A DNA stretch of 60,992 bases, from positions 1 to 60,992 of IMG/VR virus record IMGVR_UViG_3300030202_000714; one strand, 5' to 3'. The DNA comes from a virus. Taxonomy: Duplodnaviria > Caudoviricetes. Positions 3,280-52,591 of the stretch are shown piece after piece (the first letter of the stretch is position 1; each line of letters starts with the position of its first letter). Under the pieces are notes generated by a model. The model did no database searches and had not been told where the DNA came from. It saw nothing but the letters and a program-made list of their open reading frames with translations. A program made the position numbers and the translations under genes.

Positions 3280-3316
3280 AGTTATTATATTTAATTGTTA
3301 TTATTAGTTACATTTA

Positions 3317-3486: not shown

Positions 3487-3558
3487 ATAATATGTGAAAT
3501 GTTTTTATAAAATGAATATAAGTAGATGAGCGAGGTGAGCATAATAGTTAACATGTAT

Positions 3559-3590
3559 TACAGAGTAAATACGAAAAATCAAGGATAATA
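3559..3590 (+). promoter_or_regulatory. Promoter-like motif, copy 6, divergent (rightward)
   Basis: TACAG AGTAAA TAC GAAAAATCAA GGATAATA. Confidence 0.7.
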
Positions 3591-8087: not shown

Positions 8088-8113
8088 TAAACAAGGACTA
8101 AACAATTAAAACA

Positions 8114-9259: not shown

Positions 9260-9260
9260 A

Positions 9261-9965
9261 ATGGCTAGAATTAATCAGTATACAAAAGATACAAACATTA
9301 CTGGTTCAGACAAGTTTATTGGGTCTGATTCTAGCGGAGCTACTAGAAACTTTTTAGTAGAAGATTTACAAACCTTTCTAGCTGAAACAGCTACATCAGG
9401 TTCTAGTAGCCGTTTTTCATATAAGTACAAAACCGTTGGTACATCTAGTGGGGATATGGTATTCACTTTTTCTAGTGGTAGTACTTTTGCTAATGTAACA
9501 AGCATAAAAATAAGTAAGTATAATTATAGAAGACCATCTATTGATATAAGTAAAGCTTTAGAGCTTTTAAATGGTAAAGATATAATTATATATGATGTAA
9601 ATAATAGAAATAACTATGGTGTATATAAAGCTGGTAATATAGCTGTAGATAGTAATGATAGTAATTTTTATGATTTACCTATTACAATGAAAAAGAACAA
9701 TAGTTCTGTTACAATTGACAAAATATACGGTATAGATCTATTTGCTGGTAGCGATGTAAACTACGTACATCATCAAAATAACGCAGCTACTACTTGGTCA
9801 ATAAACCACAATCTTGGTAAATTTCCTAGTGTTAGTATAAAATTCTCAAGTTCTGATAATGTTTATACTAATGTTGGTGCTTTTGCTGGGGTTGTATATA
9901 CCGATGAAAATAACTTAACAATAAACTTAGCGGCCCAAGAAAGTGGATACGCATACTTAAACTAA
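9261..9965 (+). CDS. Virion/tail structural protein
   Basis: C-terminal W.INHNLGKFPSV...SGYAYLN module typical of phage fibre or collar proteins. Confidence 0.6.
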   Translation: MARINQYTKDTNITGSDKFIGSDSSGATRNFLVEDLQTFLAETATSGSSSRFSYKYKTVGTSSGDMVFTFSSGSTFANVTSIKISKYNYRRPSIDISKALELLNGKDIIIYDVNNRNNYGVYKAGNIAVDSNDSNFYDLPITMKKNNSSVTIDKIYGIDLFAGSDVNYVHHQNNAATTWSINHNLGKFPSVSIKFSSSDNVYTNVGAFAGVVYTDENNLTINLAAQESGYAYLN

Positions 9966-9972
9966 AAAAACA

Positions 9973-11622: not shown

Positions 11623-11640
11623 TAATAAAATAAAAAAATA

Positions 11641-11666
11641 AGGCGGTACGTGAGTACCGTCTTTTT
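11641..11666 (+). terminator. Rho-independent terminator
   Basis: AGGCGGTAC-GTGA-GTACCGTCT followed by TTTT. Confidence 0.8.
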
Positions 11667-11684
11667 ATCAATTAAATAATAAAT

Positions 11685-16385: not shown

Positions 16386-17698
16386 TGGGAATAGCAAGAG
16401 GAACAAATATAGTAACAAACGGTTTGATATATGGGCATGACACTGGTCATAATCCAAGTATAACTGGTTTAGATAGTCAACCTCATCATAATGATTATAG
16501 GTTTTACAAAGGCGTACCAGATACAAATGTAATTTCTTCTGGTATACCAGGTTATTTTGGATCAGGTGGAACGACTTTGTATCAAAAAACATTAAATGGG
16601 TTTTCATCAGCATCTGGCGTGTTTCAAAGAAATTATGTAACTAACCCAGCTCAAGCTAATACTGGTACGTATAACAATAACGCAGGTTTATTTCATAGTG
16701 GACTTTCATTTAATAGTCTTTCTGCTAACACAGAATACATAATGATTAGTTTTGATTTTTATATGATAACACCATATGTTAGACACTCAAGCTCAGGTAC
16801 TGGTTTAAATGGTTATCTAGGTGTAACATATACTGATGGATCAGGTGGTAATCATGGTTGGAATACTTCATTAGCTGGTAACGCTGGTGATGACTGGAAT
16901 AACAATAGTGCATATGTTGGTAAGTGGAGGAAAATAGCTTTAATAGCTGATTTAACAGATAGTAAAACACCTAGTTCTATTAACGCTATGTATATATATA
17001 ACGATAGAACTATTCAAGGAGAAGGTATATTTACAAACTTTGTTATAACTGAACATACAACACTACCTACATCACCTGTACAATGGATTGCTCAAAACGG
17101 AAGTAGAAGTAATACTCAGTGTTTAAATGATTTAGCAAGTTCATCGATTATAGATGTATCAAACGTTTCTTTTGATTCAACTGGTCAACCAACTTTTGAT
17201 GGAACAAGTGATTATTTTACTACATCACATCTTTCTACACCAAGTTCAACAAAATTAACATTTGAATCAATTTTTAAATTTAATGGTAGCTTAGATAGTA
17301 ATGATAGAAAAGTGTTTCACTGGGATAAAACAGGTTCATCTAACGCTGTTGCTCAAATAAGAAAAGGAACAAATAACGGTAGATTAATGTATCAACATCA
17401 CAACTCTCAATGGTACACATTATCTGTTGATGACGTTGTTACAGCAAATGATTTTATACATATAGTAGTTGTTCATAGTGGTACAACAGCAACTATGTAT
17501 AAAAATGGTACTCAGGTAGGTACTACAACCGTGGGCTCTTTAAATTATACTAACGCCGCTGAAATACTAGTGGGATATAGAGCTAATGCTGAGTATTGGA
17601 AAGGTGATATACCTGTGTTAAAAGTATATGATGTTGCGCTTTCTACAACTCAAATAACACAAAACTATAACGCATATAAAAACAGATTTAATTTATAA
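16385..17698 (+). CDS. LamG/ConA-like lectin-domain virion protein
   Basis: FDGTSDY...HIVVV...MYKNG...KGDI..LKVY..ALS. Confidence 0.75.
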   Translation: MGIARGTNIVTNGLIYGHDTGHNPSITGLDSQPHHNDYRFYKGVPDTNVISSGIPGYFGSGGTTLYQKTLNGFSSASGVFQRNYVTNPAQANTGTYNNNAGLFHSGLSFNSLSANTEYIMISFDFYMITPYVRHSSSGTGLNGYLGVTYTDGSGGNHGWNTSLAGNAGDDWNNNSAYVGKWRKIALIADLTDSKTPSSINAMYIYNDRTIQGEGIFTNFVITEHTTLPTSPVQWIAQNGSRSNTQCLNDLASSSIIDVSNVSFDSTGQPTFDGTSDYFTTSHLSTPSSTKLTFESIFKFNGSLDSNDRKVFHWDKTGSSNAVAQIRKGTNNGRLMYQHHNSQWYTLSVDDVVTANDFIHIVVVHSGTTATMYKNGTQVGTTTVGSLNYTNAAEILVGYRANAEYWKGDIPVLKVYDVALSTTQITQNYNAYKNRFNL

Positions 17699-18639: not shown

Positions 18640-19857
18640 ATGTACACAGGACCTAAATTAATAACGGAATCTTTAGCATTTGGATTTGACACTGGTTATG
18701 GTGTTGCAGATAAGCATACATCTACTATATACTATAAAGGTGAACCAGCTACAAATTTACAATCAGGCACTCAAACGTCTGGTATAATTCAAGGTATGTC
18801 TGGTGTTAGCATAGCCCATGTTGGTGAAGAAGATGGTTATCAAAAGTACTCTATGAACGGTACTTTTAGTGGAGGAAGTTATCCATATATAACATATTTA
18901 AATCAACAAAGTTTTACAGGTGGTGTTAAATATTCCACACAAGCTAAAGTAAAAACAAATGTTCCTGATAAATTTAATTATTTTGGTTCTAATGGTGTTA
19001 GTTATGTAAATCAACCTATGGATCATAGTGGTACGTTAAGTAGTACGCTTCAAGATGATGGTTGTTATTTAGTTAAAAGAGAAGGTTTTGCATATACTTC
19101 TACAACGTCTCAACCTGGTTATTTATGGACAAATCCAATTAATAATACGACCTTTAGTTCATCACAAGATTTTATTTATATAAAAGATTTTCAAATAGAA
19201 CAAAACGATCATTGTACACCTTATACACCAACATCTAGAGGTAATAATAATAGTTTAATTGATTTAACAAAAACTAGAGATATTCAGATAGACAACGCGT
19301 CATTCGACTCAACATGTCAACCTGTGTTAGACGGAACTGGTGATGATATTGATTTGGGTGCTGATGTTGATTTTGCTGGTGATAGAGAAGAGTGGACAGT
19401 AGAAAGTGTTGTTAAATATAACACAGTGGCTGCTGGTTACAATAATACTACATCTCCAGCTAACTTTATCGGCTCTGATAGTATTCAGCATAGTAGCTGG
19501 TATTGGAGTGTGTTGGGTAGTAAACTTGCTATTTGGAATATAAGTCCAGGAGTTTGGAAATATGGCTCAACAACGCTTGCTGCAAATACTTGGTACCATG
19601 TAGTTTTAACTGTTGGGCCTGGTGGAACAAGTTATCAAATGTATTTAAATGGTGTAGCAGAAGGTGGTGATCACGCTAGCTACTCGTTTAACGCTGATTA
19701 CTCAGGTTTAAGAGTTAGATATTTTGGTAGAGGAAACTCAGGTAACAGAAGAAACGTTGATGGAAACATAGCAGTAACAAGAATATACAAAAAAAGATTA
19801 ACAGCAGATGAAGTAAAACAAAACTTTAACGCATATAAAGAAAGATTTAATATATAA
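18640..19857 (+). CDS. LamG/ConA-like lectin-domain protein
   Basis: LDGTGD, WYHVVLT, MYLNG, RIYKKRLTADEV. Confidence 0.75.
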   Translation: MYTGPKLITESLAFGFDTGYGVADKHTSTIYYKGEPATNLQSGTQTSGIIQGMSGVSIAHVGEEDGYQKYSMNGTFSGGSYPYITYLNQQSFTGGVKYSTQAKVKTNVPDKFNYFGSNGVSYVNQPMDHSGTLSSTLQDDGCYLVKREGFAYTSTTSQPGYLWTNPINNTTFSSSQDFIYIKDFQIEQNDHCTPYTPTSRGNNNSLIDLTKTRDIQIDNASFDSTCQPVLDGTGDDIDLGADVDFAGDREEWTVESVVKYNTVAAGYNNTTSPANFIGSDSIQHSSWYWSVLGSKLAIWNISPGVWKYGSTTLAANTWYHVVLTVGPGGTSYQMYLNGVAEGGDHASYSFNADYSGLRVRYFGRGNSGNRRNVDGNIAVTRIYKKRLTADEVKQNFNAYKERFNI

Positions 19858-26005: not shown

Positions 26006-26201
26006 TATCGGTAAAGATTACAAAAATGAAGCTATGCACTACTCCGTAGATCAAGAGGTTTACGGAGGGCATATCATCGATTGTATAGTTGAGGAAGACG
26101 ACAAATACAGTGTTTATATTAAAAAAGAAAACGAGGTTTTACCTTGGAAAGATTTTAATAAAAACATGGCTATAGCTGTTGAGTACAATTTAGAATATTA
26201 A
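25983..26201 (+). CDS. Hypothetical protein
   Basis: Likely start ATG at 25983 (MRLIRKISIG...). Confidence 0.7.
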   Translation: MRLIRKISIGKDYKNEAMHYSVDQEVYGGHIIDCIVEEDDKYSVYIKKENEVLPWKDFNKNMAIAVEYNLEY

Positions 26202-26797
26202 TGCAAGGTCTTTATTATTTTGTAGTTAAACCAGTAAATTCAAGATATAACAATATTAAGAAAATAGGTGATAAATCACTTATTACAAATACTGAGAATT
26301 TTACACATCAAAATGTAAATAGAAACGCTATAGTTATATCTACACCTAAAGGTTTTGAAACTAATATAAATATAGGTGATGAAATTATCGTTCATCATAA
26401 TGTTTTTAGAAGGTGGAAAGATATAAGAGGCGTAGAGCAAAATAGTAAAGGATATTTTGAAGAAGATAAATATTTTGTTCAACTAGATCAAATATACTTA
26501 TATAAAAATAACAACACTTGGAAATCAGTAGATGAGTATTGTTTTGTTAAACCAATACATGCTATTGATAATTTTAGTATAGAAAAAGAGCAACCATTAA
26601 TTGGTGTTTTAAAATATACCAACAATCACGAATATTTAAATACTTTAAAACCTGGTGATTTAGTAGGATTCGTACCTCGTAGTGAATACGAGTTTATAAT
26701 AAACGATGAGCGTTTATATAGAGTTCAAACAAGTGCAATTACAATTAAATATGAATATCAAGGAAAAGAAAGAGAATATAATCCAAGCTGGTTATAA
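26201..26797 (+). CDS. Protein with two tandem GroES-like domains
   Basis: Both halves show FV.KP...[IL]..GD.[IV]; the second ends EYEFIINDERLYRV..SAI. Confidence 0.55.
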   Translation: MQGLYYFVVKPVNSRYNNIKKIGDKSLITNTENFTHQNVNRNAIVISTPKGFETNINIGDEIIVHHNVFRRWKDIRGVEQNSKGYFEEDKYFVQLDQIYLYKNNNTWKSVDEYCFVKPIHAIDNFSIEKEQPLIGVLKYTNNHEYLNTLKPGDLVGFVPRSEYEFIINDERLYRVQTSAITIKYEYQGKEREYNPSWL

Positions 26798-37147: not shown

Positions 37148-40100
37148 ATGCCAGAATTAAAGAGACAATTTGGTGGAGGTGGTATGAATAAGGACCTCGA
37201 CGAAAGAATAGTTCCTAATGGTAAATATAGAGACGCGTTAAACATACAAGTGTCTAGTTCTGAAGCTAGTGATGTTGGTGCTGTGCAAAATATATTAGGT
37301 AATAGAAGACCGTATGGTAATGCTTTATCTAATCTAGGTAGTAATCCTATGTGTATTGGTGTTTACTCAAATACTAAAACAGAGATGATATACTGGTTTG
37401 TTGCGAGTGACACTAAGTCTTTAATACTAGAGTATGATCAAACATTAAATGTTGTTTCACCTATATTAGTAGATACGACTGGTGTTTTAGGTTTTAATGA
37501 AGCATTTTTAATAACTGGTATAAATATAATTGATGATCTATTATTTTGGACAGATGATCAAACTGAGCCAAAGAAAATAAATATAAAAACTTGGAAAGCT
37601 TATAATAGCTCTAATAGTAATTATACACACACACAAATAAGTAGTGCTAACTTTACAGAAGACCACATAACAGTAATAAAGAAAGCTCCAATCAAACCAC
37701 CAACTATAGCAATGTCAGCATCTAAAAGAACTGGTATTGTTGAAACTACATTATTACAAAAAAGATTTACAGAAACAACAGATCCTTTTGATGCTATAAG
37801 TACTGGTAATTACGGTGCTGTTACGTTTTCAACAACACCAAATTTTGAAGTTGGAGATAAATTAAGGGTAACATTACTTAGCGGTGCTGCAGATGAAGAG
37901 ATTATACTTAGTGTAACAGCTGTAGCAGGTGCCTCGTTTACAGTTAATGTAGATGTTATCTCAGAAAACATAGAAGAAGGTTTACAAGATTGGAAAGTTG
38001 AGTTAATAGAAGAAAAACCTATGTTTGAGTTTAAATTTCCTAGGTTTTCATATAGATATAAATTTGATGACAACGAATATTCAGCTATAGGACCTTATAG
38101 TAAAGTAGCATTTTTACCATCTGATTTTGATTATGCTCCTAAAAAAGGTTATAATAAAGGTATGGTTAACAATGTTAGATCTTTAAAAATAGGTGGTTTT
38201 ACAGAAGGAGCACCTCATGGTGTTAAAGAGATAGACATATTATATAAAGATACAGCTAGCAACAATATATACACAGTACAAAGTATAAAAACAACAGATG
38301 AAGAATATACAGCTGGTACCAATGGTGAAGTTGAAATAACTTCAGATGTTATATATAAAGTTTTACCTTCAATTCAAGCATTGAGACCATGGGATAATGT
38401 TCCTAGAAAAGCTAAAGCTCAAGCTATGTCAGCTAATAGGATTATGTATGGTAACTACTTAGAAAACTTTGATATGAAAGATTCTAGTGGTGATGATATA
38501 AGCGTTAGGTTTGATGTATCTATAGTTCAAAACCCCTCAGTATCAACTTTAGAAAAAGAACCATACCCATCTATCAAATCGCTTAGAACATATCAAGTTG
38601 GTGTTGTTTATAGAGACAAATATGGTAGAGAAACACCAGTGTTTACTGATACATCTGGTTCTTTTACATTAGATAAATTATCCGCTATAAACTACAATGT
38701 TTTAAAAGTAAAAATAACTAGTCCAATACCACATTGGGCTGAGTCATATAAATACTTTGTAAAAGAATCTTCAGACGAATATTATAATTTAGCTATGGAT
38801 AGACATTATCCAGCTGAAGATGGTAATGTTTGGATAGCTTTCCCTTCATCAGAAAGAAATAAAGTATCAGAAGAAACATTTTTAGTTTTAAAGAAAAGAC
38901 ATAATGATGATACGTTTGTTGAAGATGAAGCTAAATATAAAATAATAGCTATTGAAAACGAAGCTCCTGATTTTTTAAAAATAGAAAGAGTTACACAAGG
39001 TGTTTTAAATTCTACTAACTCTGGACAACAAAATGAAAACATATTTTTATCCACTGGTTTTCCTGAGCCAGATAGAACTTACATGCACATATTAAAAAGT
39101 AAGTGGAAGAAAGTTTTTGGAGGTGGTGAAAATGATTTTAATGAAAACACACCACCTGTTCATCATAAATCTGACTTAATAGTTAGAGTGTTATCAGCTG
39201 GTAATAAAACAAAATGGTATGATATTGCTAATTTAAAACTTGTTGAAGCAGGTAGCAATGATTATTATGAAGTCGAGTTAGAAGATAAATTAACAGAAGA
39301 TGATGTTTCTTTTATAGGTGCTTATAGCGCTAGTGATAATAGTTTATCTTTAGAGATTGCTCAAAAAAATATTAAAACACAACCTGAATTTGGTGGTAGA
39401 TTTTTTGCTAAAATAGAAAGAGATGGTGTTTTAGAATCAGCTATTTTAAATAATGAAAACACAGATGATTATAGTGTTATAGCTAACACACATATATACG
39501 CTAACAGTTTTGCACCTGATAAATCACAAGATTATTGGAGAAATGCTCAAAAAGGTGTTTATCCAGGTGGAGCAGGAAGAAATGATACATATCACGGTGA
39601 ATGGTTTTTATGTAGAAATATATATAGACATTATAAAGATGCTGGTGGTACTTTAGTTACTAACGGTAATAAATACAGAGGTGGTTTAGGTGGTGTTACA
39701 AGTCACAGCAATGCTCATGATGTTAGAGGTTTTGGAGCTCAATCTGGTAATGACTTTATTGAAATAGCTTATCACTGGTGGTATGATCAGGATAGAGAAG
39801 CTTGGCAAGGTGCTTGGAATAACTTTGAGTACCAACATAGACCTGCTTATAAAAATCTAGTAACCTCAATGCAAACAACAAACATGAAGTTTAGGTTTAC
39901 TGATGACCCTGATCAAACTGTTTATCAAATAAAAGGATATAGAAGAAGTAATATAGGTGCTTTTAAAGATGGTGCTATAGGTAGATGGGGTAGTATGAGA
40001 ATTATTAAATGGACTTTAAAACTAGATAAGCAAATACAATGGGCGCCAGAAGATAATGGACACACATCAAAAGCGTCGGCTACTCAAATAGAGTTTTTAG

Positions 40101-41422
40101 ATATATATGCTGGTGGTGACGAAAAAGGTTTTACAAGTGATAATCCAGCTATATTTGAAACAGAACCAAAAGATATAACAGATCTAAATCTATATTTTGA
40201 GACGGATCAAGCTTATAATAAATCAGTACATGGTAACGAGCAAACTTTAGATTATTCAAACTGTTGGAGTTTTGCTAACGGTGTAGAGTCTGATAGAATT
40301 AGAGATGATTTTAATGCTTTTAAATTAAACAAAGGCGTGAAAGCTAGTACTATATTAGAAACACCTTATGCTGAAGAAAGAAAATCAAACTTTGTTATAT
40401 TCTCTGGGCTTTATAATTCTATAAGTGGAACAAACAATACTAATCAATTTATACAAGCTGATAAAATAACAAAACAAATAAACCCTGTTTATGGATCAAT
40501 ACAATTAATGAGACATAGACATGGTGGTCTAGATGTTTTATGTGAAGATAAATGTTTTAAAATACCTACAAACAAAGATATATTATTTACAGCTGAAGGT
40601 AGCAAACAAGTAACAGTATCTTCAGATGTACTAGGAACAGTAAATCCTTACACTGGTGAGTTTGGTATTAGTAAAAATCCTGAGTCTTACACTCAATATG
40701 GTTACAGAGCGTACTTTTCAGATAAAGCCAGAGGAGTGATTCTAAGACTCTCTGCTGATGGTCTTGAGCCTATATCACGTTATGGTATGGAAGATTACTT
40801 TAAGGACAACCTAGAAGTGTCTACGACGGTTATAGGTAGTTATGATACTAATAAGAAAGAATATAATATAACTTTAAACCATAATACAATATCTTTTAAA
40901 GAAGATACTAATGCTTGGACAAGTAGAAAAAGTTTTTTACAAGAAGATGGTGTGAGTTTAAATAATAAATACTACACATTTAAACACGGTGATCTTTGGG
41001 TTCACGATAATGAAGTTAGAAATGAATTTTATGGTAATCCATATGACTCAAGTATTAAATTTATATTTAACGATGCTCCTGGTTCTGTCAAACAATTTAA
41101 AACTCTAAACTACGAAGGCTCACAAGCTAGAATATTCCAAGATAATAGTGGTAATGCTGACACAGATAATAACTTCTTTAACAAAAATAATACCGCTGGT
41201 TGGTGGAGTAATTCTATAGAGTCTGATAAACAAAGTGGTAATGTATTAAAGTTTGTAGAAAAAGAGGGTAAATGGTTTAACTATATACAAGGTACACAAA
41301 CAACATTGTCTAATTTAGATACAAGTGAGTTTAGTGTTCAAGGTTTAGGTAGTGGATCTGTATCCGCAAGTAGCGATTACTCATATAAAGTAACAATAAC
41401 AGTAAACGAAAATAACGACTAA
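37148..41422 (+). CDS. Tail nozzle/stabilisation protein (P22 gp10 / tubular protein B-like)
   Basis: MNKDLDER..P.G.YRDALN, LFWTD...PKKIN, FKTLNYEG, KEGKWFNYI. Confidence 0.7.
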   Translation: MPELKRQFGGGGMNKDLDERIVPNGKYRDALNIQVSSSEASDVGAVQNILGNRRPYGNALSNLGSNPMCIGVYSNTKTEMIYWFVASDTKSLILEYDQTLNVVSPILVDTTGVLGFNEAFLITGINIIDDLLFWTDDQTEPKKINIKTWKAYNSSNSNYTHTQISSANFTEDHITVIKKAPIKPPTIAMSASKRTGIVETTLLQKRFTETTDPFDAISTGNYGAVTFSTTPNFEVGDKLRVTLLSGAADEEIILSVTAVAGASFTVNVDVISENIEEGLQDWKVELIEEKPMFEFKFPRFSYRYKFDDNEYSAIGPYSKVAFLPSDFDYAPKKGYNKGMVNNVRSLKIGGFTEGAPHGVKEIDILYKDTASNNIYTVQSIKTTDEEYTAGTNGEVEITSDVIYKVLPSIQALRPWDNVPRKAKAQAMSANRIMYGNYLENFDMKDSSGDDISVRFDVSIVQNPSVSTLEKEPYPSIKSLRTYQVGVVYRDKYGRETPVFTDTSGSFTLDKLSAINYNVLKVKITSPIPHWAESYKYFVKESSDEYYNLAMDRHYPAEDGNVWIAFPSSERNKVSEETFLVLKKRHNDDTFVEDEAKYKIIAIENEAPDFLKIERVTQGVLNSTNSGQQNENIFLSTGFPEPDRTYMHILKSKWKKVFGGGENDFNENTPPVHHKSDLIVRVLSAGNKTKWYDIANLKLVEAGSNDYYEVELEDKLTEDDVSFIGAYSASDNSLSLEIAQKNIKTQPEFGGRFFAKIERDGVLESAILNNENTDDYSVIANTHIYANSFAPDKSQDYWRNAQKGVYPGGAGRNDTYHGEWFLCRNIYRHYKDAGGTLVTNGNKYRGGLGGVTSHSNAHDVRGFGAQSGNDFIEIAYHWWYDQDREAWQGAWNNFEYQHRPAYKNLVTSMQTTNMKFRFTDDPDQTVYQIKGYRRSNIGAFKDGAIGRWGSMRIIKWTLKLDKQIQWAPEDNGHTSKASATQIEFLDIYAGGDEKGFTSDNPAIFETEPKDITDLNLYFETDQAYNKSVHGNEQTLDYSNCWSFANGVESDRIRDDFNAFKLNKGVKASTILETPYAEERKSNFVIFSGLYNSISGTNNTNQFIQADKITKQINPVYGSIQLMRHRHGGLDVLCEDKCFKIPTNKDILFTAEGSKQVTVSSDVLGTVNPYTGEFGISKNPESYTQYGYRAYFSDKARGVILRLSADGLEPISRYGMEDYFKDNLEVSTTVIGSYDTNKKEYNITLNHNTISFKEDTNAWTSRKSFLQEDGVSLNNKYYTFKHGDLWVHDNEVRNEFYGNPYDSSIKFIFNDAPGSVKQFKTLNYEGSQARIFQDNSGNADTDNNFFNKNNTAGWWSNSIESDKQSGNVLKFVEKEGKWFNYIQGTQTTLSNLDTSEFSVQGLGSGSVSASSDYSYKVTITVNENND

Positions 41423-45652: not shown

Positions 45653-48600
45653 ATGAGTGATGCTAAGTTTATGACACGTCAGTATAATGTTGCTGGCGCT
45701 AGCTACAACATTACTGATAAACATCAAGAAATGCAAGATGATTACGATGAGTATCTTGTGGAACAAGAAAGATTAGAAGAAGAGGAAAGAAGATTACATC
45801 TTGAAAAAACTCAAAAAAGCTTACCTAAACTATATAAATATTTAGTTGAAAACGGTATATATACTAAGCCGTTTAATAATTTCACAGAACAGTTTTACAA
45901 TGAACAAAGTAGAGAAAAACTACATAGTTATTTACAAGAACAAAAAGCATACACTAAAGGTTATGAAGCTTTTAATGAACAGTTTTTTTCTGACGATGTT
46001 GAATATTATGGTGATTATTCAATTGATGGATCATACACTAATAATACTATAGAAAGTGATTATTCTAAATCTTTAGCTGGTATTGGTCATGCTATTTGGG
46101 GAGGCGCTAAACAAGGTTACTGGAGAGCTTCTTCTATGGACGATATAGCTAATGTTATGGAGTTTAATCCTGAAGGTATAACTGATGAAGATATATCTAA
46201 ATTTATAACTGCAGCAGAAGAATTAGAAGAAATGGGTGGACCTAGTAGAGTTACTAAACTTTGGCAAAAAGTTTATGATGAAGAAATGGACAAGGGCACT
46301 AATGGTGTTGTTGCTTGGCTTAGAGCTACAGAAGCAACTGGTGGTGTTTCTTATATTGCAGAAAATTTTCTAGCGAGTATGGGAGGTATGATTAACTTTG
46401 AGAGTGCAAAAGCCGCTGTAGCTGGTGGAGCTACAGGTGCTGGTGGAGGTTTTATGGTTGGTGGACCAAAAGGAGCTGCTGTTGGTGGAGTCGCTGGCGC
46501 TTGGGGTGGTGTTAATGCTTACAATGATGCGTTGATGAGTTTTAAAGCTTCTTTAGACGAAGAACTACAAGAAAGGGGTTTGCCTAGAAATATAGAGAAT
46601 TTAAGAGTATTATTTAGAGATGAAGAGTTTTATGATAAAGCTCGTAATCAAGCTGTAGCAAGAGGTGTAGCTATTGGCGTTATCGAATCTGTTTTTACAG
46701 TGGCTGGTGGTAAAGGAGCTACAGCAATTATAAGAAGCGCACCTAAAACAACCGTGGTTAGAGGTTCAAGAATAATACCAAAAGCTAGTACTATAAAAGC
46801 AAGTGGTGTGGTTGGTGTTTCAGAAGTTGCTGGCGGTATGACCGGTGAAGCTGTTGGTTTAAAAATACAAGGCAAAGAACTAGATGCTGGTGAAATAATT
46901 AACGAGGGTGTTATAGGACTAGGTGGCGCTCCTGTTACTGGAGCGGTTAGTTTGTTATCAAACGTTAGAAAAGGTGAATATTCTATTGATGGTAAAAATG
47001 TTACACCTCAACAAATGCAAGATATTATTGATACAGCTACAAACGAGGAGGTAACAGCTATGGACATTGTTATTAAAAACGACAATGAATTATCACAGTA
47101 TGTAAATAAAATACAACAAGAAACACAATTAAAAGCATCCATAGATCCAAGAGTTACAAATAAAACAGATAGAGATGCTTTGTTTGAATTAGAAAGAAGA
47201 GCACTAAAATTTATAGGTAATGATTCATCTTTTGCTAAATCTCAATTAGCGGATATACAAAGTCAAATAAAAGATATAAATTCTAAGTACTCAAGAAAAG
47301 GTAGAAAGTCAAAAGCTACTTTACAAAACGAAGCGGATAGATCAAGAGTTGCTAACGCTATTAAAAAAAGAAAAGCAGAAGAACAAGCTAGATTTGCTGA
47401 AACTGGTGCTAAAAAACTTGGTTTAAAAACCGTAGCAGCAAACACTACAAAAGGTCTTAACAAAATAATAAAAGACAATAAAATAAATCTAACAAAAAAA
47501 CAAAAATCTCAATTAAATCTTATAGGTGGTTTTATTGATAAAGGTGTAATATATATAAATAAAGAAGCCGCAGCTAATACGCTTCAATTTAATGTTGGTG
47601 CGCATGAGTTGCTTCATGGTATTTTAAACGCTAAAGTAAAAAATCAAAAGGCTTTAATGAACGATATACAAAGAATATTACCAGATAATATCAATGCTGC
47701 TATTATAAAAAGGATGCAAGACAGAGGTTATGAAAGAGGCAAACAGCATCAAGAATATCTTACAGTTATGTCAGACATGCTAAACCCTAATGATAAATCT
47801 GCAGCTGCTATGGAAGTAAAAAGTTTGTTTAAAGACAAAGGTATTGTAGATAATATAAAGCAGTTTATTATAAATATACTCAGAAGATTTGGTTATAAAA
47901 ATATAGACTTTAATAAAGCAGAAGATGTATTAAAGTTTATGCAAGAGTATACAGATAGTGTTAAAGAAGGTCAAATATCACAAGCTTTAGTAGATGAAAT
48001 AGGACCAATAACAGCTGAACAAGCTACACTTTCAGAAGCACAACTTTCTTTAAACGCTGTAGATTCACAATTAGTAAATGAAATATATAGAGAGCAAGGT
48101 ATAACAGATCTTAGTGCTTTTGAAATGTTAAATGTATTAAGACCTACAGCTCAAGGTATAGCTCGTAGATATGAGCAAAGACCTAATTATTCTGAGTTTG
48201 CAGATATACTTGTAGATGAAATACAAACAGGTGAAAGAGGTATGCTAGATGTTATAAGAAGTTATCCTGAGTACGTTAAGAAACAACAACTAAAAGGTAA
48301 AGAACCTGCACCATTGTCCGGCTATTTAAATAATGCTTTTTCTACAAAAACAGGTTTTAAAAGGTATGTTGAAATAGCTGATAGAATTTTAGGTAAAGAC
48401 GAGGGTAGTCAGTTTACAACAAGTATAGATGATACAACTCAACAAATAGCAGATCAACCTGTAGAAACAAAAAAGACTAAACCAGTTACAAAGATAGATC
48501 CTAGAGATATAGTAAAACCTAAGTTTAAAAAAGCTTATAACGAAACTGTGACTTTAGATAATGTAGATCTTGAAAACCCAAGCTTTAAAAAAATAAAAGG

Positions 48601-51600
48601 ACAAGGTGAAGCTATTATGGCTGAGGCTGTAGGCATACCTGTTAGCAAATTAAAACCAGCTAACAACTTTAGTAAAGCTGATTTAGAAAAATCATCTAAG
48701 TTTATATTTGATTCTAAAACTTTATTTAGAAAGCTTATGCCAAAAGGCGCTGTACTAGAAGCTGCTTCAGATAAATTAATAGGTACATCAACTGGTGTTC
48801 AAAAATCTTTATTGAATGCTTATTATACTAAACAAGACAGAGCAGATAACTTATACCCACATGCTTTAGATAAATTAAATGATACTCAGTTTTTAGAAAA
48901 AGCTGGTATAGATCCAAAAACAGGTAAACCAATAAAAGGTTTATCACCTAGATCGGCTGAAGCACAGGTGCAAAAAGCTTTATTGAACATGGGTGATAAG
49001 TTAATTACAAACACTATAATTAAAGAACAACTAAAACAAATAGATGCTTCACCAAACGTTATTCAAGATGTAGCCGCGGGTACTCAAGAAATACAACTTA
49101 GTAAAACAAGTATAGATTTAGCTAATGAATTTGATTTAATAAATACATATCCTGGTGTGCGTGAAAATGCTGCAAAAAGTATAGATGCTGGTATTTTAGC
49201 TTCTGATTTTTATTTTGATGGCTTTTATAAATATATATATCCTGTTTTTGAAAAAAATCACCCAGGACTACTAACAGCTGGTGAGGCTTATAACGGTATT
49301 AATTTAAGAAACTATAAACCGGTTTTATATTATTTACGAGAAAAGTTTAAAAGTATAAAATATTCAACGGGTAATTATCCTAAAAGAGATTTTGCTGAGT
49401 TTGTTGGTAAAACAGTAAAAGACATACAAAAAAATAAATCAAAAATACCTGAATATAATAAACAAGCAAGTATAAATTTTGATGCTTTTTGGAATAATAT
49501 TAATGAAATATTAGTTAAAAATCCTGAAGCACTTGGTGTTGTTTTACAATTTTTAGAAAACGCTATAAGCTCTAAAACACATCCACACAGAAATGGTGCA
49601 GAGTTTATGTATTACGATCAGACTAACACTGGTAATGTTTATTTAGAACACGCTTTACAAAATAAAAACGCTTACGTTACTTTGATACGTTCTATTATGA
49701 ATCCAGATCAAAACTTTCAATCTACATTAGCTGCTGTAAAAAAGAACTATAAGCTTATTGGTATAACTTATGCTGATAACAAAAGTCTAGATAATAGTGA
49801 TTTAAAAAACAATATGGATCTTACTGGTGAGTGGAACGTGTTTGATAATAACTGGTTTGAAAGATATTTTAATGAAACGATGGCTGCGTTAGGTTTTGTA
49901 GGTACAGAAAATTTAATAAATGCAGAAACAGGTAAATCATTTTTAGAAGAGTTCAATATAAACAACGAGGGTTTAAAAATATCACCTCAGTTACAATTAT
50001 CTATAAACGAGGTTAATAAAAATAGTAAAATATTAGAAGCTAAACAACAAGGTAGATTAAAAAACAAACCTGAAAAAGGTATCAGTGTATTTGACTTTGA
50101 TGACACTTTAGCTCAAACAAACAGTCAAGTTATAGTAACTATGCCTGATGGTAGTACTAATAAAATAAATGCTACTGAGTTTGCTTTACAGTCTGCAGAT
50201 CTTGAAGCGGCTGGAGCTGTATTTGATTTTAGTGAGTTCAATAAAATTATTGATGGTAAGAAAGGTCCTTTATTTGAACTAGCATTAAGAAGACAAGATA
50301 AGTTTACTAGCAAAGACATATTTGTACTAACAGCAAGACCACAAGAAGCAGCTTATGCAATACATGCTTTTTTAAAAGGTATAGGATTAGAAATACCTAT
50401 AGAAAATATAACTGGCTTAGAAGATGGTAGACCTCAAGCAAAAGCTGACTGGATTATAGATAAAGCAGCTGAAGGTTATAATAATTTTTATTTTGCTGAT
50501 GATGCTTATAAAAACGTAAAAGCAGTACAAGATGTTTTAAATCAAATAGATGTTAAATCCGACGTGCAACAAGCTAAGATACAGTTTAGTTTAGGTGAAG
50601 GTTTTAATAACATATTAGAGCAAACAAAAGGCATAGAAGCACAAAAAGTATTTTCTGATGCTGCTGCAAAATCAAGAGGTCGAGGTGCTGATAAGTTTAC
50701 TTTCTTTTTACCACCTTCAGCTGAAGACTTTGTTGGTCTTATATACAGCTTTTTAGGTAAAGGCAAACAAGGTGAAACTCAATTAAAATTCTTTGAAGAT
50801 AACTTAATAAAACCTTTTACTAGAGGTATACAGGAAATAAATAGTGCTAAAGAAGCTTATGCTAAAAACTACAGAGAGCTTGGTAAGTTTTATCCTCAAG
50901 TTAAAAAACTATTATCAAGAAAAACAGCTTATAATGATTTTACATATGACGCTGCTATTAGAGTTTATTTGTGGGATAAATTAGGTTATAAAATACCTGG
51001 TATATCAAAGACTGATCAAAAAAGATTATCAGAGATAGTAGCAGCTGATATTGATTTAAAAAGCTACGCTGAAGTATTAAACAATATTACTGGTAAGAAA
51101 AACTTTCCTGAACCAAGTGAAAACTGGGTGATAGGTACTATTGTATCTGATATAAATGATATAACTCAAAGAGTTGGTAGAAAAAAATATTTAGGTGACT
51201 TTATAGAAAACAAAAACGAAATATTTAGTAAAGATAACTTAAATAAAATCCAAGCTACATATGGTGATAATTTTAGAAGTGCGTTAGAAGACATATTATA
51301 TCGTATGGAAAACGGTACTAATAGACAAAGTGGTAACAATAAGCTTACAAACTCGTTTTTAAACTGGGTTAACAACTCTGTTGGTGCTATCATGTTTTTT
51401 AACTTTAGATCAGCGACTTTACAAACAATATCTTTATTTAACTTTATCAACTGGTCAGATAATAATCCAGTTAAGTTTGGTAAAGCTATATTAAATACAA
51501 AGCAATACGCTAAAGATTTTGCTATGATATTTAATTCAGACATGTTAAAACAAAGAAGAAGAGGTTTACAGACAGATGTAAACGAAGCTGAAATAGCACA

Positions 51601-52591
51601 AGCGATGAGTACATCTAATAACAAGCCAGCTGCTATATTAAGGTATTTATTACAAAAAGGTTTTATACCCACACAAATGGCTGATAGTTTTGCTATCGCT
51701 TCAGGTGGTGCTACGTTCTATAGAAATAGATTAAACACATACTTAAAACAAGGTTTAAATCAAAAACAAGCTGAAAACAAAGCTTTTGCTGATTTTGCCG
51801 ATGCTTCAGAAAAAGCACAGCAGTCAGCTAGACCTGATATGATCTCACAACAACAAGCAAGCCCATTAGGTAGATTAATATTAGCTTTTCAAAATACACC
51901 AATGCAGTATATGAGATTAACTAAAAAAGCTTTTCTTGATCTTAAAAATGGTAGAGGTGATTGGAAAACAAATGTTTCTAAAATAGCTTATTACGCAGCT
52001 ATACAAAATTTAATATTCTCTACACTATCTAACGCTATGTTTGGTATGTTGTTTGATGATACTGAAGAGGATATGTGGGATAAAAAGAAAGATAGAGTTG
52101 TTAATAACATGATGGATACTGTTTTAAGAGGTTCCGGTGTTTACGGTGCTATCGTCTCTACAATAAAAAATATGATAATGAGATTTTCATATGAAGCTGG
52201 TAAAGATAGAAATCCAGATTACACCTATGTATTAGTAGAAGGTTTAAATCTATCACCACCAGTTGGATCTAAAGCTAGAAAACTATACAACGCTTTACAG
52301 TCTTACAAGTTTGATGCTGATGAAATGAAAGAAGCAGGATTTAGTTTAGATAATCCTGGTTTATTAGCAATTGGTAATGTGTTGTCAGCTACGGCAAATA
52401 TACCTTTAGATAGAGCTGTAATGATATTAAACAATTTAAAAGAAGCTTCTAACAGTGAAAATGAAGCGTGGCAAAGAATAGCTATGGTATTAGGTTGGAA
52501 CACTTGGGATGTAGGTGTCGATCCTTATGAATCTAAAAGCCAAATAAGAAAAAAGAATACAAAAAGAATACAAAGAGTTAAGAAAAATTAA
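45653..52591 (+). CDS. Giant polyvalent ejection protein (2312 aa): zincin HExxH, sigma-like domain, HAD domain, helical C-terminus
   Basis: GAHELLH at 47603; PTAQGIARRY...GMLDVIRSY...PLSGYLN at about 48130-48335; VFDFDDTL/LTAR/FADD HAD motifs at 50080-50505; Gly/Ala hydrophobic segments near the N-terminus. Confidence 0.7.
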   Translation: MSDAKFMTRQYNVAGASYNITDKHQEMQDDYDEYLVEQERLEEEERRLHLEKTQKSLPKLYKYLVENGIYTKPFNNFTEQFYNEQSREKLHSYLQEQKAYTKGYEAFNEQFFSDDVEYYGDYSIDGSYTNNTIESDYSKSLAGIGHAIWGGAKQGYWRASSMDDIANVMEFNPEGITDEDISKFITAAEELEEMGGPSRVTKLWQKVYDEEMDKGTNGVVAWLRATEATGGVSYIAENFLASMGGMINFESAKAAVAGGATGAGGGFMVGGPKGAAVGGVAGAWGGVNAYNDALMSFKASLDEELQERGLPRNIENLRVLFRDEEFYDKARNQAVARGVAIGVIESVFTVAGGKGATAIIRSAPKTTVVRGSRIIPKASTIKASGVVGVSEVAGGMTGEAVGLKIQGKELDAGEIINEGVIGLGGAPVTGAVSLLSNVRKGEYSIDGKNVTPQQMQDIIDTATNEEVTAMDIVIKNDNELSQYVNKIQQETQLKASIDPRVTNKTDRDALFELERRALKFIGNDSSFAKSQLADIQSQIKDINSKYSRKGRKSKATLQNEADRSRVANAIKKRKAEEQARFAETGAKKLGLKTVAANTTKGLNKIIKDNKINLTKKQKSQLNLIGGFIDKGVIYINKEAAANTLQFNVGAHELLHGILNAKVKNQKALMNDIQRILPDNINAAIIKRMQDRGYERGKQHQEYLTVMSDMLNPNDKSAAAMEVKSLFKDKGIVDNIKQFIINILRRFGYKNIDFNKAEDVLKFMQEYTDSVKEGQISQALVDEIGPITAEQATLSEAQLSLNAVDSQLVNEIYREQGITDLSAFEMLNVLRPTAQGIARRYEQRPNYSEFADILVDEIQTGERGMLDVIRSYPEYVKKQQLKGKEPAPLSGYLNNAFSTKTGFKRYVEIADRILGKDEGSQFTTSIDDTTQQIADQPVETKKTKPVTKIDPRDIVKPKFKKAYNETVTLDNVDLENPSFKKIKGQGEAIMAEAVGIPVSKLKPANNFSKADLEKSSKFIFDSKTLFRKLMPKGAVLEAASDKLIGTSTGVQKSLLNAYYTKQDRADNLYPHALDKLNDTQFLEKAGIDPKTGKPIKGLSPRSAEAQVQKALLNMGDKLITNTIIKEQLKQIDASPNVIQDVAAGTQEIQLSKTSIDLANEFDLINTYPGVRENAAKSIDAGILASDFYFDGFYKYIYPVFEKNHPGLLTAGEAYNGINLRNYKPVLYYLREKFKSIKYSTGNYPKRDFAEFVGKTVKDIQKNKSKIPEYNKQASINFDAFWNNINEILVKNPEALGVVLQFLENAISSKTHPHRNGAEFMYYDQTNTGNVYLEHALQNKNAYVTLIRSIMNPDQNFQSTLAAVKKNYKLIGITYADNKSLDNSDLKNNMDLTGEWNVFDNNWFERYFNETMAALGFVGTENLINAETGKSFLEEFNINNEGLKISPQLQLSINEVNKNSKILEAKQQGRLKNKPEKGISVFDFDDTLAQTNSQVIVTMPDGSTNKINATEFALQSADLEAAGAVFDFSEFNKIIDGKKGPLFELALRRQDKFTSKDIFVLTARPQEAAYAIHAFLKGIGLEIPIENITGLEDGRPQAKADWIIDKAAEGYNNFYFADDAYKNVKAVQDVLNQIDVKSDVQQAKIQFSLGEGFNNILEQTKGIEAQKVFSDAAAKSRGRGADKFTFFLPPSAEDFVGLIYSFLGKGKQGETQLKFFEDNLIKPFTRGIQEINSAKEAYAKNYRELGKFYPQVKKLLSRKTAYNDFTYDAAIRVYLWDKLGYKIPGISKTDQKRLSEIVAADIDLKSYAEVLNNITGKKNFPEPSENWVIGTIVSDINDITQRVGRKKYLGDFIENKNEIFSKDNLNKIQATYGDNFRSALEDILYRMENGTNRQSGNNKLTNSFLNWVNNSVGAIMFFNFRSATLQTISLFNFINWSDNNPVKFGKAILNTKQYAKDFAMIFNSDMLKQRRRGLQTDVNEAEIAQAMSTSNNKPAAILRYLLQKGFIPTQMADSFAIASGGATFYRNRLNTYLKQGLNQKQAENKAFADFADASEKAQQSARPDMISQQQASPLGRLILAFQNTPMQYMRLTKKAFLDLKNGRGDWKTNVSKIAYYAAIQNLIFSTLSNAMFGMLFDDTEEDMWDKKKDRVVNNMMDTVLRGSGVYGAIVSTIKNMIMRFSYEAGKDRNPDYTYVLVEGLNLSPPVGSKARKLYNALQSYKFDADEMKEAGFSLDNPGLLAIGNVLSATANIPLDRAVMILNNLKEASNSENEAWQRIAMVLGWNTWDVGVDPYESKSQIRKKNTKRIQRVKKN

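Follow-up and report, generated by a model that had tools for sequence, protein, structure and literature searches.

The window, by which we mean the whole stretch of phage DNA analyzed (60,992 nucleotides), carries a giant open reading frame, P0001, downstream of a crAss-type muzzle gene. The muzzle protein matches PF25729 crAss_MUZ_C (36.8 bits versus a cutoff of 27) and phrog_14478 (E value of 7.8e−148), and the gene order is muzzle gene, four small or medium open reading frames, giant open reading frame, and lysis genes. This bears out the initial annotation, which had placed a giant multimodule protein in a crAss-type slot, and all of the motifs that it named were found in place within the frame at 45653..52591. 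The following features were delineated.

37148..41422, + strand: crAss-type muzzle protein, 1424 aa, five genes upstream of the giant ORF
45653..52591, + strand: giant ORF P0001, 2312 aa, a single ATG-to-stop frame in the slot after the muzzle gene
46091..47335, + strand: N-terminal Gly/Ala-rich region, aa 147-561; PHROG 32588 (function unknown), E value of 7.9e−29
47450..48022, + strand: zincin-like metallopeptidase module, aa 600-790; H651, E652, H655 (47603-47617), E701 (47753-47755)
48041..48049, + strand: junction J1, EAQLS at aa 795-799 (Q797-L-S), border of zincin and sigma-like domain
48053..48400, + strand: sigma region-2-like helical domain, aa 801-916; region-2.2-like helix ADILVDEIQTGERGMLD at aa 845-861
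48401..48475, + strand: disordered acidic/basic linker, aa 917-941; pLDDT of <50 at model residues 120-144
48476..49096, + strand: domain 2, aa 942-1148; conserved core GTSTGV..SLL..(F/Y)YTK..R
49094..49102, + strand: junction J2, EIQLS at aa 1146-1150 (Q1148-L-S), end of domain 2
49097..49993, + strand: module X, aa 1149-1447, covered by just 41 to 74 of 119 listed relatives
49994..50002, + strand: junction J3, QLQLS at aa 1446-1450 (Q1448-L-S), upstream of the HAD module
50060..50572, + strand: HAD-type phosphatase module, aa 1470-1640; D1481, D1483, T1485; T1560; K1597; D1616, D1617
50582..50590, + strand: junction J4, KIQFS at aa 1642-1646 (Q1644-F-S), after the HAD module
50585..52588, + strand: C-terminal module, aa 1645-2312, conserved and more widely shared in the family than any other part

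Independently folding modules are strung collinearly along P0001 on short exposed linkers, in the order Gly/Ala-rich N terminus, zincin-like metallopeptidase, sigma region-2-like domain, domain 2, variable module, HAD-type phosphatase, and C-terminal module. The virus record is 94% complete, with about 8 kb absent from the contig. Strong PHROG matches were obtained for TerL, portal, and capsid, and the nearest isolates are podophages of Flavobacterium, Cellulophaga, Tenacibaculum, and Maribacter with genomes of 60 to 77 kb. The phage is probably a marine ∼67-kb podophage of Flavobacteriaceae with a crAss-like head-tail module and without a virion RNA polymerase, and the giant is probably its cargo protein. 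In Cellulophaga phage phi40:1, gp101 (1691 aa) in the same slot and the three preceding proteins are annotated as structural by experimental tandem mass spectrometry (MS/MS), and the post-muzzle genes of PhiCrAss001 are described, in part of one report, as encoding cargo proteins detected in virions (PMC10172136). Because no sequence similarity was found between P0001 and the MS-verified gp101, it is gene position only that places P0001 in the virion. By analogy with these phages, the giant protein is probably a virion component, and it is probably ejected.

Modules and the motif at their borders

More than 4048 relatives of P0001 were found at an E value of ≤0.001 among 8000 candidates scored. 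Module order is fixed among the relatives while modules come and go; other enzymes found in them are an AAA_33/Zeta-like kinase, GH16 with CBM, and PEBP. The P-loop kinase (AAA_33/Zeta_toxin) occurs in 2 of 17 relatives scanned, and that of P0119 lies at aa 1626-1780, in a kinase-then-phosphatase order. All 119 listed relatives cover the C-terminal module, and of 222 long relatives 214 have it. Hydropathy analysis gave one moderately hydrophobic helix in this module (aa 2116-2134) and two moderately hydrophobic stretches in the N-terminal region (aa 334-352 and 420-438, with peaks of 1.54 and 1.44). No solved-structure match was found for domain 2, which contains IMAEAVGIPVSKL at aa 988 (48614-48652), and module X had no Pfam match and an unnamed best match in the ESM Atlas (score of 0.86).

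Both enzymes that had been read from short motifs withstood comparison across the family. The putative metallopeptidase motif GAHELLH spans aa 649-655 (47597-47617, the HELLH part being 47603-47617); HExxH is retained in 28 of 28 aligned sequences, and all of a set of 15 diverse sequences have the H, E, H, and downstream E. The sole match of a zincin module profile in the PDB was the zincin IrrE, which was not significant (E value of 2.3). The full invariant HAD motif set is present (DFDDT at aa 1481, LTAR at aa 1559, and FADD at aa 1614), its residues being invariant or nearly so in 14 of 14 members and 28 of 28 aligned sequences. Pfam DUF2608 matches all 14 members (best E value of 1.8e−5); the P0001 copy scores 14.3 bits, below the 22.6 cutoff, and none of the Pfam HAD models passes its cutoff on this copy. 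DFDDT, the only look-alike of the RNA polymerase motif DFDxD, was rejected as such, because it has an invariant Thr and is HAD motif I.

P0001 contains exactly four Q[LF]S sites versus 0.85 expected from composition, a mild excess when taken by itself, given that the motif was picked after inspection of the sequence. The relatives lift the pattern above chance. In an alignment of P0001 with 27 full-length relatives, the columns of J1, J2, and J4 read [QMK][FLY]S[KR] ("QFSK" and "MFSK") in divergent members, while the exact position of J3 is kept in the 5 closest relatives only; more distant ones have xFS[RK] about 12 aa ahead of DFDDT in its place. [FY]S[KR] occurs 525 times over 120 family proteins versus 193 expected, and the density of [FYL]S[KR] in 158 nonredundant giants is 14.0 sites per 1000 aa near module borders (within 30 aa) versus 2.0 elsewhere, a sevenfold difference. 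Border by border, the end of domain 2 carries [QMK][FLYMTA]S in 87 of 108 relatives; the corresponding counts are 84 of 102 after the HAD module, 53 of 103 ahead of the HAD module, and 42 of 96 ahead of the sigma-like domain. The junctions proposed from P0001 are thus conserved in homologs, J3 in its exact place in the closest ones only, and as judged from these alignments the four Q[LF]S sites represent, in this protein, a linker motif that runs through the whole family, h-[QMK]-[FLY]-S-[KR].

These linkers are probably cut by P0001's own zincin, which would free the modules before or after ejection. The motif occurs at four different borders, in exposed linkers that structure models place just outside folded domains (J1 and J2 sit 4 to 7 residues away), and the zincin residues are invariant. 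Thermolysin-like zincins prefer a hydrophobic P1′ residue, which Q/M/K before and F/L/Y after the putative scissile bond would fit. Processing of fused crAss cargo polyproteins has already been proposed in published discussion of these phages. We give somewhat less than an even chance to the alternative that the protein stays uncleaved, the motif being a linker or docking signal (e.g., for packaging or tail threading) or a relic of once-separate gene starts and the zincin acting on peptidoglycan or host proteins. Met is the residue that most often precedes F-S-K at the domain-2 border (62 of 87), so that many copies read M-F-S-K, and the phi14:2 authors, in a passage of their report, also allow a peptidoglycan role for their zincin protein. 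A zincin, moreover, does not imply processing, because a passage in PMC5512222 describes the N4 virion RNA polymerase as packaged in uncut form despite its zincin domain.

A sigma region-2-like domain and its predicted partner

The initial annotation had aligned the segment after the first junction by eye with region 2 of the sigma-70 family. This segment, with MLNVLRP at aa 825 and APLSGYLN at aa 886, was modeled with AF2 on a 31-row alignment (mean pLDDT of 85.6), and the aa 801-916 model superposes on sigma-2 of SigB, sigma-28, sigma-32, ECF sigmas, and others. In a structure search of 48,161 chains, chains named as sigma factors filled 22 of the 50 rows listed and 13 of the first 15, and row 5 was a chain of the T4 late-transcription complex. 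Sigma70_r2 clusters made up 15 of 30 named ESM Atlas matches, at 0.93. Shared-feature counts in the Atlas were low, at 120 to 136 of 256. The predicted fold is region-2-like, as the alignment by eye had suggested, but a Foldseek search of the PDB with the model gave nothing at an E value of ≤0.001, and phage sigma factors appeared in BFVD at E values of >0.1 only.

No sequence profile places the P0001 copy in the sigma-70 family, and that part of the earlier assignment was not supported. Pfam gave no match on the P0001 protein, Pfam Sigma70_r2 gave none in the six frames of the window at an E value of ≤10, and a 14-row profile of the sigma-like module retrieved no sigma factor from all PDB sequences at an E value of ≤10. 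When 14 members were searched singly with Pfam, 1 matched (E value of 0.19). Family member P0104 passes Sigma70_r2 (26 bits versus a cutoff of 24, aa 768-816), and hhalign places the sigma-like module profile on its residues 721-826 (E value of 0.0061).

Docking with residues 180-400 of RpoC from F. johnsoniae gave ipSAE values of 0.75, 0.68, and 0.75, with partner pLDDT values of 80 to 82 and at least 80% of contacts agreeing between runs; all three controls stayed at ≤0.01. By the docking tool's own account, 58 of 80 solved complexes and only 2 of 110 mismatched pairs attain this mark, a calibration that holds only roughly here because an author-made alignment was used. The pass may also stem from the model's having memorized sigma-RNA polymerase complexes, many of which are solved. 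In the predicted interface, the DEIQTGERG helix (module residues 48-69) faces beta-prime residues 288-319 with helical spacing, and the DEIQTGERGML helix is thus predicted on the clamp-helix region. D-x-I-Q-x-G-x-x-G-h-h, the most conserved stretch of the domain, lies exactly on this predicted interface; in module numbering, E59, I60, G63, and D69 are nearly invariant and G66 is invariant.

We consider it improbable that the sigma resemblance reflects a common helical arrangement, with aa 801-916 forming a structural or scaffolding bundle without an RNA polymerase partner. Such a bundle would agree with the uniformly negative profile tests on the P0001 copy and the negative Foldseek result, and the docking score could stem from likeness to training complexes. 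Yet sigma factors rather than mixed bundles top the 48,161-chain search, the language-model search independently indicates Sigma70_r2, and a paralogous copy at the same position in P0104 passes the Pfam threshold. The placement of the most conserved stretch on the predicted interface and the three docking controls also argue against a mere bundle.

Early transcription

As the earlier reading had supposed for this phage, no virion RNA polymerase was recognizable in this record, nor was one recognizable in three complete relatives. No DFDxD was found in ORFs of >300 aa of the 94%-complete record, and tblastn with phi14:2 gp077 gave no match there. BLAST of phi14:2 proteins gave no matches in the three 100%-complete relatives, whose sole DFDxD-like matches, in ORFs of 608 and 457 aa, are attributable to chance. 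A normal stand-alone sigma factor is encoded in 5 of 5 relatives (4 above the Pfam cutoff; 28.9 bits in G001), in a genome stretch absent from this contig, and this phage very probably also encodes one in the missing 8 kb. Because close relatives encode such a factor, the phage does not depend on the giant for sigma activity in general, which weakens the earlier reading. In sum, the modules, the border motif, the predicted region-2-like fold, and the lack of a recognizable virion RNA polymerase are supported, but placement in the sigma-70 family by sequence profile is not.

All six GGATAATA sites of the window fall in a tripartite motif, TACA-N7-ATACR-N9-GGATAATA, which is conserved at the head of the early arm. 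It recurs in G001, G003, and G004, each time on the strand of the stand-alone sigma gene and ∼3 kb ahead of that gene. In phi14:2, the primary-sigma holoenzyme reads a tripartite promoter motif, according to part of one report (10.1101/2020.03.07.982082). By analogy, the host holoenzyme may likewise suffice for the early motif here.

In a reading that we regard as unlikely, though less so than the bundle, the sigma-2-like domain does bind the host beta-prime clamp helices, without serving in initiation. The domain might be a decoy that blocks rebinding of host sigma (shutoff) or a core tether at the ejection channel, where transcription would help to pull in the genome. Host sigma-A would then read the early promoters, and the phage stand-alone sigma would read the later ones. 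The predicted interface comprises the core-binding helix only, no region-4 equivalent was found in P0001, and the phage group has a complete sigma of its own. The tryptophan pair of region 2.3, including the equivalent of W433 in sigma-70 numbering, is by eye not kept; the equivalent of Tyr430 (Y94 of the module), again by eye, is kept in the family. Without a region-4 equivalent, promoter recognition would fall to region 2 by itself or to domain 2, but T4 gp55, a sigma with region 2 only, reportedly works without region 4. Furthermore, the early-arm motif, whose last element is a −10-like GGATAATA, is conserved even among divergent relatives, a pattern that fits a phage-borne specificity factor.

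The best explanation of the whole, to which we give about an even chance, is that the cargo giant with its sigma-2-like domain gives the phage a first hold on host core RNA polymerase. Anatomy, conservation, fold resemblance, and in silico docking are observed; RNA polymerase binding in the cell and promoter use, like virion location, ejection, cleavage, and the phosphatase substrate, are inferred. The delivered domain would bind the host beta-prime clamp helices via its region-2.2-like helix, which would give the phage, on entry, the first claim to the host core enzyme. Its most likely use would be to start or favor transcription at the tripartite sites at the head of the early arm, which would lead to the phage's own stand-alone sigma gene.

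Comparison with known systems

The P0001 domain resembles sigma-2 of sigma-70 (regions 2.1 to 2.4) and minimal phage sigmas such as T4 gp55 in its ∼115-aa helical fold, the region-2.2-like D-x-I-Q-x-G-x-x-G, and the predicted contact with the beta-prime clamp-helix region. As is said of gp55, region 4 is not evident. Rather than being a free protein of 180 to 300 aa, it lies midway in a putative virion protein of 2312 aa, ahead of an unrelated 200-aa domain without a solved-structure match; it also fails Pfam Sigma70_r2 and by eye lacks the region-2.3 tryptophans.

The HAD module has all four motifs of HAD-superfamily phosphatases but differs in scoring below the Pfam HAD cutoffs. T4 polynucleotide kinase-phosphatase is an architectural parallel to the kinase and HAD module order of relatives such as P0119, whereas P0001 itself is without a kinase module.

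Polyvalent proteins with a zincin-like MPTase, as described in passages of Iyer et al. 2017 (PMC5512222), are likewise giant and multidomain, with a zincin (HExxH and a downstream Glu) as the hub domain and with proposed self-processing and delivery alongside DNA. In P0001, too, modules come and go in fixed order and relatives carry further enzymes. The words "sigma" and "phosphatase" do not occur in the main text of that paper, and the repeated conserved linker motif at module borders is a difference from its relevant passages.

The crAss-like cargo block comprises, in published descriptions, a zincin protein, a virion RNA polymerase (phi14:2 gp66, PDB 6VR4), and a third protein, fused as one polyprotein in some phages. 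Similarity to gp66 or 6VR4 was not found. P0001 shares with this cargo its post-muzzle position, giant size, zincin module, and a putative part in launching early transcription from within the virion. It differs in a phage genome of ∼67 kb versus ∼100 kb and in that transcription would use host core RNA polymerase; if this is true, the giant may let a phage seize host RNA polymerase at entry without a polymerase of its own.

Gene neighborhood and modules of the giant protein

The virus record is a single contig, rated 94% complete and without a terminal repeat. Its ORFs include TerL (phrog_6681, E = 3.9e-170), the portal protein (phrog_6547, E = 7.8e-155), a structural protein of the capsid block (phrog_13704, E = 6.5e-95), and a muzzle protein of 1424 aa that scores above the Pfam crAss_MUZ_C cutoff (36.8 bits versus 27). 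By these sequence matches, the head-tail module of the phage is crAss-like. The muzzle gene is followed by ORFs of 625, 128, 217, and 418 aa, by the gene for the giant protein considered here (P0001), and then by a 392-aa ORF, small ORFs, and an M15 endolysin. P0001 and other features of the window are as follows.

4418-5977: GroEL (phrog_5725, E = 4.8e-135)
11685-16385: 1566-aa ORF without a PHROG or Pfam match
16385-17698 and 18640-19857: two proteins of the tail-fiber block with Laminin_G_3 (concanavalin-like lectin) domains
26201-26797: 198-aa ORF without a Pfam match; the syntenic ORF of the elemo phage, adjoining TerL, is annotated as co-chaperonin GroES
45653-52591, + strand: P0001, 2312 aa
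54400-54810: thioredoxin-fold ORF (PF00085, 27.9 bits), between the giant and the endolysin

The isolates closest in TerL and muzzle are podophages of 60 to 77 kb, and the 87 matched records comprise 68 Flavobacterium “elemo” phages, 15 Cellulophaga, 2 Tenacibaculum, 1 Maribacter, and 1 uncultured phage. The genome position after the muzzle gene, the slot in which crAss-like phages keep their virion RNA polymerase cargo, is also occupied by giants in the nearest isolates (3694 aa in elemo, 3859 aa in MW202828, 1691 aa in phi40:1, and 1990 aa in phi13:2). BLAST and HMM comparison of P0001 with these four proteins found no real similarity; the sole matches were marginal, to the N-terminal Gly-rich part (E = 2e-5) and the zincin (E = 0.007). 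In phi40:1, the giant and the three genes preceding it carry structural annotations based on experimental tandem mass spectrometry (MS/MS). For PhiCrAss001, cargo and RNA polymerase-associated proteins encoded after the muzzle are described as found in virions (PMC10172136). A muzzle domain is also encoded by all five near-complete relatives that carry the sigma-like module of P0001. Judged by the position of its gene, P0001 is probably virion cargo that is ejected into the host.

All motifs that the initial annotation had listed for this region lie where it placed them, in the single ORF of P0001 (45653-52591, + strand, 2312 aa). From the N terminus, the protein consists of a Gly/Ala-rich part, a zincin-like module, a sigma-like module (aa 801 to 916), a second domain (domain 2, aa 942 to 1148), module X, a HAD domain, and a C-terminal module. 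At an E value of ≤0.001, more than 4048 relatives of the whole protein were found among 8000 scored candidates. Megablast and tblastn searches of the phage collection with the whole protein returned no match. The region from about aa 1450 to 2300, containing the HAD and C-terminal modules, is common to 119 of the 119 relatives listed; the zincin is present in most of them, and the middle part is variable. Among 221 long relatives, a sample biased by the way it was collected, the order zincin, sigma-like module, domain 2, HAD, and C terminus is fixed and modules are gained or lost. All five modules are present in 64 of these proteins, 33 lack domain 2, and another 33 lack both middle domains; 43 of the 221 have domain 2 but not the sigma-like part, and 26 have it with neither the sigma-like domain nor the HAD. 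Pfam searches of 17 diverse giants detected an AAA_33/Zeta-like P-loop kinase in two proteins, GH16 with CBM_4_9 in one, PEBP in one, and Sigma70_r2 in one. Exchange of modules in this family is the same as described for polyvalent proteins in the account of PMC5512222. Domain 2 was modeled with confidence and its predicted structure resembles no solved one, and the best ESM Atlas match to module X was unnamed (score, 0.86).

Border motif, zincin, and HAD module

The initial annotation had proposed that P0001 is split at four Q[LF]S junctions (window positions 48041, 49094, 49994, and 50582). Four such sites against 0.85 expected are weak evidence taken alone. When relatives were aligned, the junction columns read [QMK][FLY]S[KR], and the motif proved to be conserved at module borders: its density there was 14.0 per 1000 aa versus 2.0 elsewhere in 158 nonredundant giants, and its overall enrichment was 525 observed versus 193 expected in 120 proteins. 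At the end of domain 2, 87 of 108 relatives have the motif, with the consensus K-S-x-h-[MQ]-F-S-K; after the HAD, 84 of 102 have it, with the consensus Q-A-K-h-[KQ]-F-S-K. It was found less regularly before the sigma-like domain (42/96 relatives) and before the HAD (53/103), counts obtained with a loose pattern that also admits chance matches. In the predicted structures, the junction motifs fall just outside the folded parts.

In the h-[QMK]-[FLY]-S-[KR] linkers, a long unbranched residue precedes the putative cut and a large hydrophobic one follows it, which would suit cleavage by a thermolysin-like zincin. The zincin of P0001 has an HExxH helix followed, in the next helix that is conserved, by a Glu; all 15 of the 15 diverse sequences compared share H651, E652, H655, and E701. 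Pfam gave no match for this region, and a search of PDB sequences with its profile returned only the zincin IrrE, which was not significant (E = 2.3) and aligned on the strand and HExxH helix. The arrangement in P0001 agrees with the HExxH-plus-Glu signature described for the MPTase domains of polyvalent proteins (PMC5512222). The same account describes the N4 virion RNA polymerase as a zincin-bearing cargo protein that stays whole (PMC5512222). Self-processing has long been proposed for polyvalent proteins, and the border motif offers a concrete candidate cleavage rule for it.

On its motifs, the region from aa 1470 to 1640 is accepted as a HAD-type phosphatase. HAD motifs I (DxDxT), II (S/T), III (K), and IV (DD) are all present; 14 of 14 sequences share D1481, D1483, T1485, K1597, D1616, and D1617, with T1560 nearly invariant, and 28 of 28 have DFD[DQE]T, LTAR, and [AGVT]DD. 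Pfam DUF2608, a member of the HAD clan, matched 14 of 14 members (best E = 1.8e-5), with the P0001 copy at 14.3 bits against a cutoff of 22.6. HAD_2, HAD, and Hydrolase each matched 1/14 (E = 0.05 to 0.12), and the HAD profile found no HAD among PDB sequences. The DFDDT of motif I was also considered as an RNA polymerase DFDxD site; this reading was rejected, since an invariant Thr occupies position 5 and HAD motifs II to IV follow.

One other member of the family, P0119, carries an AAA_33/Zeta_toxin-type P-loop kinase at aa 1626 to 1780, N-terminal to its conserved C-terminal part. T4 polynucleotide kinase-phosphatase has a kinase-then-phosphatase order. The kinase before the HAD in P0119 recalls this order, which is a lead to the substrate and nothing more.

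The sigma-like module

AlphaFold2 with a 31-row alignment produced a two-domain model (mean pLDDT, 85.6) with a helical domain at residues 1 to 119, a domain at 145 to 351, and a disordered linker between them. The helical domain is predicted to have the fold of sigma region 2. In the ESM Atlas, Sigma70_r2 clusters made up 15 of the 30 named matches at 0.93, with low counts of shared features. P0104, the one of the 17 scanned giants with Sigma70_r2 (26 bits versus a Pfam cutoff of 24), has it at aa 768 to 816, after its zincin as in P0001, and hhalign placed the profile of the P0001 module at 721 to 826 of P0104 (E = 0.0061). The region 2.2 signature of sigma factors is D-L-I-Q-E-G-N-x-G-L-M-x-A-V-x-K-F, and DEIQTGERGMLDVIRSY of the module lines up with it by eye; within the module, E59, I60, G63, G66, and D69 are fully or almost fully conserved.

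Docking of the module with residues 180 to 400 of Flavobacterium johnsoniae RpoC predicted an interface in three runs (ipSAE of 0.75, 0.68, and 0.75; median, 0.75), versus 0.01 for the best control. Partner pLDDT was 80 to 82, and at least 80% of the contacts agreed between runs. Of 80 solved complexes, 58 reach this ipSAE mark, as do 2 of 110 mismatched pairs, a calibration that holds only roughly given the custom alignment used here. The contacts join module residues 48 to 69 with residues 288 to 319 of beta-prime (RPOC_FLAJ1), the putative clamp helices by the helical spacing of the contacts. A region 2.2 helix bound to the beta-prime clamp helices is predicted in silico. What the docking records is likeness to the sigma-2/clamp-helix interface, not binding, and the pass may reflect memory of solved holoenzymes.

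Sequence searches of P0001 itself did not place the module in the sigma-70 family. No Pfam model, Sigma70_r2 (PF04542) included, matched P0001 at an E value of ≤1, so the gathering score of PF04542 was not reached, and Sigma70_r2 found nothing at an E value of ≤10 in six frames of the window, with controls positive in 11 of 14 genomes. Searched against 14 module sequences, Sigma70_r2 matched one (E = 0.19); the 14-row module profile retrieved no sigma at an E value of ≤10 from all PDB sequences. Foldseek against the PDB returned nothing at an E value of ≤0.001 for either model, and in BFVD one family member matched at 2.2e-6, with all others above 0.1. Of the region 2.3/2.4 residues that serve melting and -10 recognition (sigma-70 numbering), alignment by eye shows the Y430 equivalent kept as Y94 of the module, with N or K in place of W433 and F or A in place of W434.

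A phmmer search with the module of 1.84 billion representatives gave 193 matches at an E value of ≤0.001. No free sigma was recognized among the 150 of these that were listed, which are mostly longer than 1000 aa with some shorter. When free-standing homologs of 193 to 615 aa were sought, only five proteins were found, of 296 to 607 aa and covering 39 to 61% of the module; these are probably pieces of giants. The segment IMAEAVGIPVSKL, first read as a possible HTH, sits in domain 2 and was set aside, as no HTH or sigma-4 match appeared among the rows listed for that domain; this is absence, not exclusion.

Together, the fold, docking, and profile results make the module sigma-2-like only. The domain that comes after it, domain 2, is conserved and matches no solved structure.

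Search for a virion polymerase, stand-alone sigma, and putative early promoters

The initial annotation had supposed that no RNA polymerase is packaged, and none is recognizable in the window: [DN][FY]DxD is absent from ORFs of >300 aa, and gp077 of phi14:2 has no tblastn match. BLASTP against phi14:2 gp076 to gp082 gave nothing below an E value of 1, and phmmer of P0001 against the PDB gave nothing, gp66 (6VR4) included, so that P0001 has neither the DFDxD catalytic motif nor the gp66 similarity of a crAss-like virion RNA polymerase. A crAss-type virion polymerase hidden elsewhere was sought in the window and in three 100%-complete relatives (67 to 72 kb) and was not found. In these relatives, phi14:2 proteins had no BLAST match, and the only DFDxD-like matches, in a 608-aa and a 457-aa ORF, are chance ones. 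The T7-type polymerase model PF00940 had no match either, a result of little weight since the control genomes were silent too.

A stand-alone sigma ORF of 251 to 265 aa with Sigma70_r2 was found in all five near-complete relatives carrying the module, above the cutoff in four. The closest relative, G001, is 78 to 90% identical to the window in DNA, and its first 8089 bases have no counterpart there. This stretch, which would fall beyond both ends of the window, encodes a 255-aa sigma (Sigma70_r2, 28.9 bits), a DNA ligase domain, a Pyr_excise-like (pyrimidine-dimer glycosylase-like) protein, ERF, a PDDEXK protein, a primase-helicase, thymidylate synthase (ThyA), and MazG. By these findings in its relatives, the phage very probably has a free sigma of its own. 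This weakens the idea that the giant supplies the phage's sigma, but it may still supply the first one. When the module was aligned with the free sigma of G001 by hhalign, 20 columns matched at region 2.1 (E = 0.02), too weak for paralogs.

Six copies of a 32-nt motif, TACA-N7-ATACR-N9-GGATAATA, lie at 619-3590 of the window, where two transcription arms diverge. Each of the six GGATAATA octamers in the window falls within this motif, five facing the leftward arm and one the rightward. Three complete, divergent relatives have the motif too: G001 (six copies, 63756-66639), G004 (five copies, 62950-67949), and G003 (two full copies and nine GGATAATA sites, 6964-11948). In all three, the stand-alone sigma gene follows on the same strand, about 3 kb downstream of the motif. 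This placement fits a cascade of early promoters followed by the phage sigma. For phi14:2, a tripartite motif is described as read by the primary-sigma holoenzyme (10.1101/2020.03.07.982082).

In the proposed mechanism, the virion would hold a sigma-2-like module inside a cargo polyprotein that cleaves itself and so releases the module at the h-[QMK]-[FL]-S-[KR] linkers. The freed module would load the host core RNA polymerase onto the TACA-N7-ATACR-N9-GGATAATA early promoters, and the early arm, once switched on, would then express the phage's own free sigma. We judge the chances to be even that P0001 travels in the virion as cargo and that its sigma-2-like domain engages the host core RNA polymerase. 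The fuller claim, that an injected sigma freed by self-cleavage fires the early promoters, we consider rather unlikely. Overall, what the initial annotation had observed in the giant was confirmed and strengthened, and its interpretation was borne out in part.

Among the main texts searched, no report was found of a virion protein with a sigma-like domain, or of a cargo domain of this type in a polyvalent protein of the crAss slot, which is not proof of absence. The module forms 193 clusters at 50% identity, with 166 confirmed loci in viral contigs, and a family this large may matter to the takeover of cells in the sea by flavobacterial phages. Since the module occupies the crAss polymerase slot, it also bears on the evolution of the cargo block. 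The proposed mechanism, if true, would make the module the first sigma factor delivered from a virion, and in the design of the crAss-like virion a sigma would functionally replace the crAss/N4 virion RNA polymerase. Transcription before phage proteins are made is known to rely on the host holoenzyme, on injected modifiers such as T4 Alt, or on a whole polymerase, as in N4, crAss-like phages, and PhiKZ. A virion-carried, sigma-like module that binds the host core would be a fourth, much cheaper solution.
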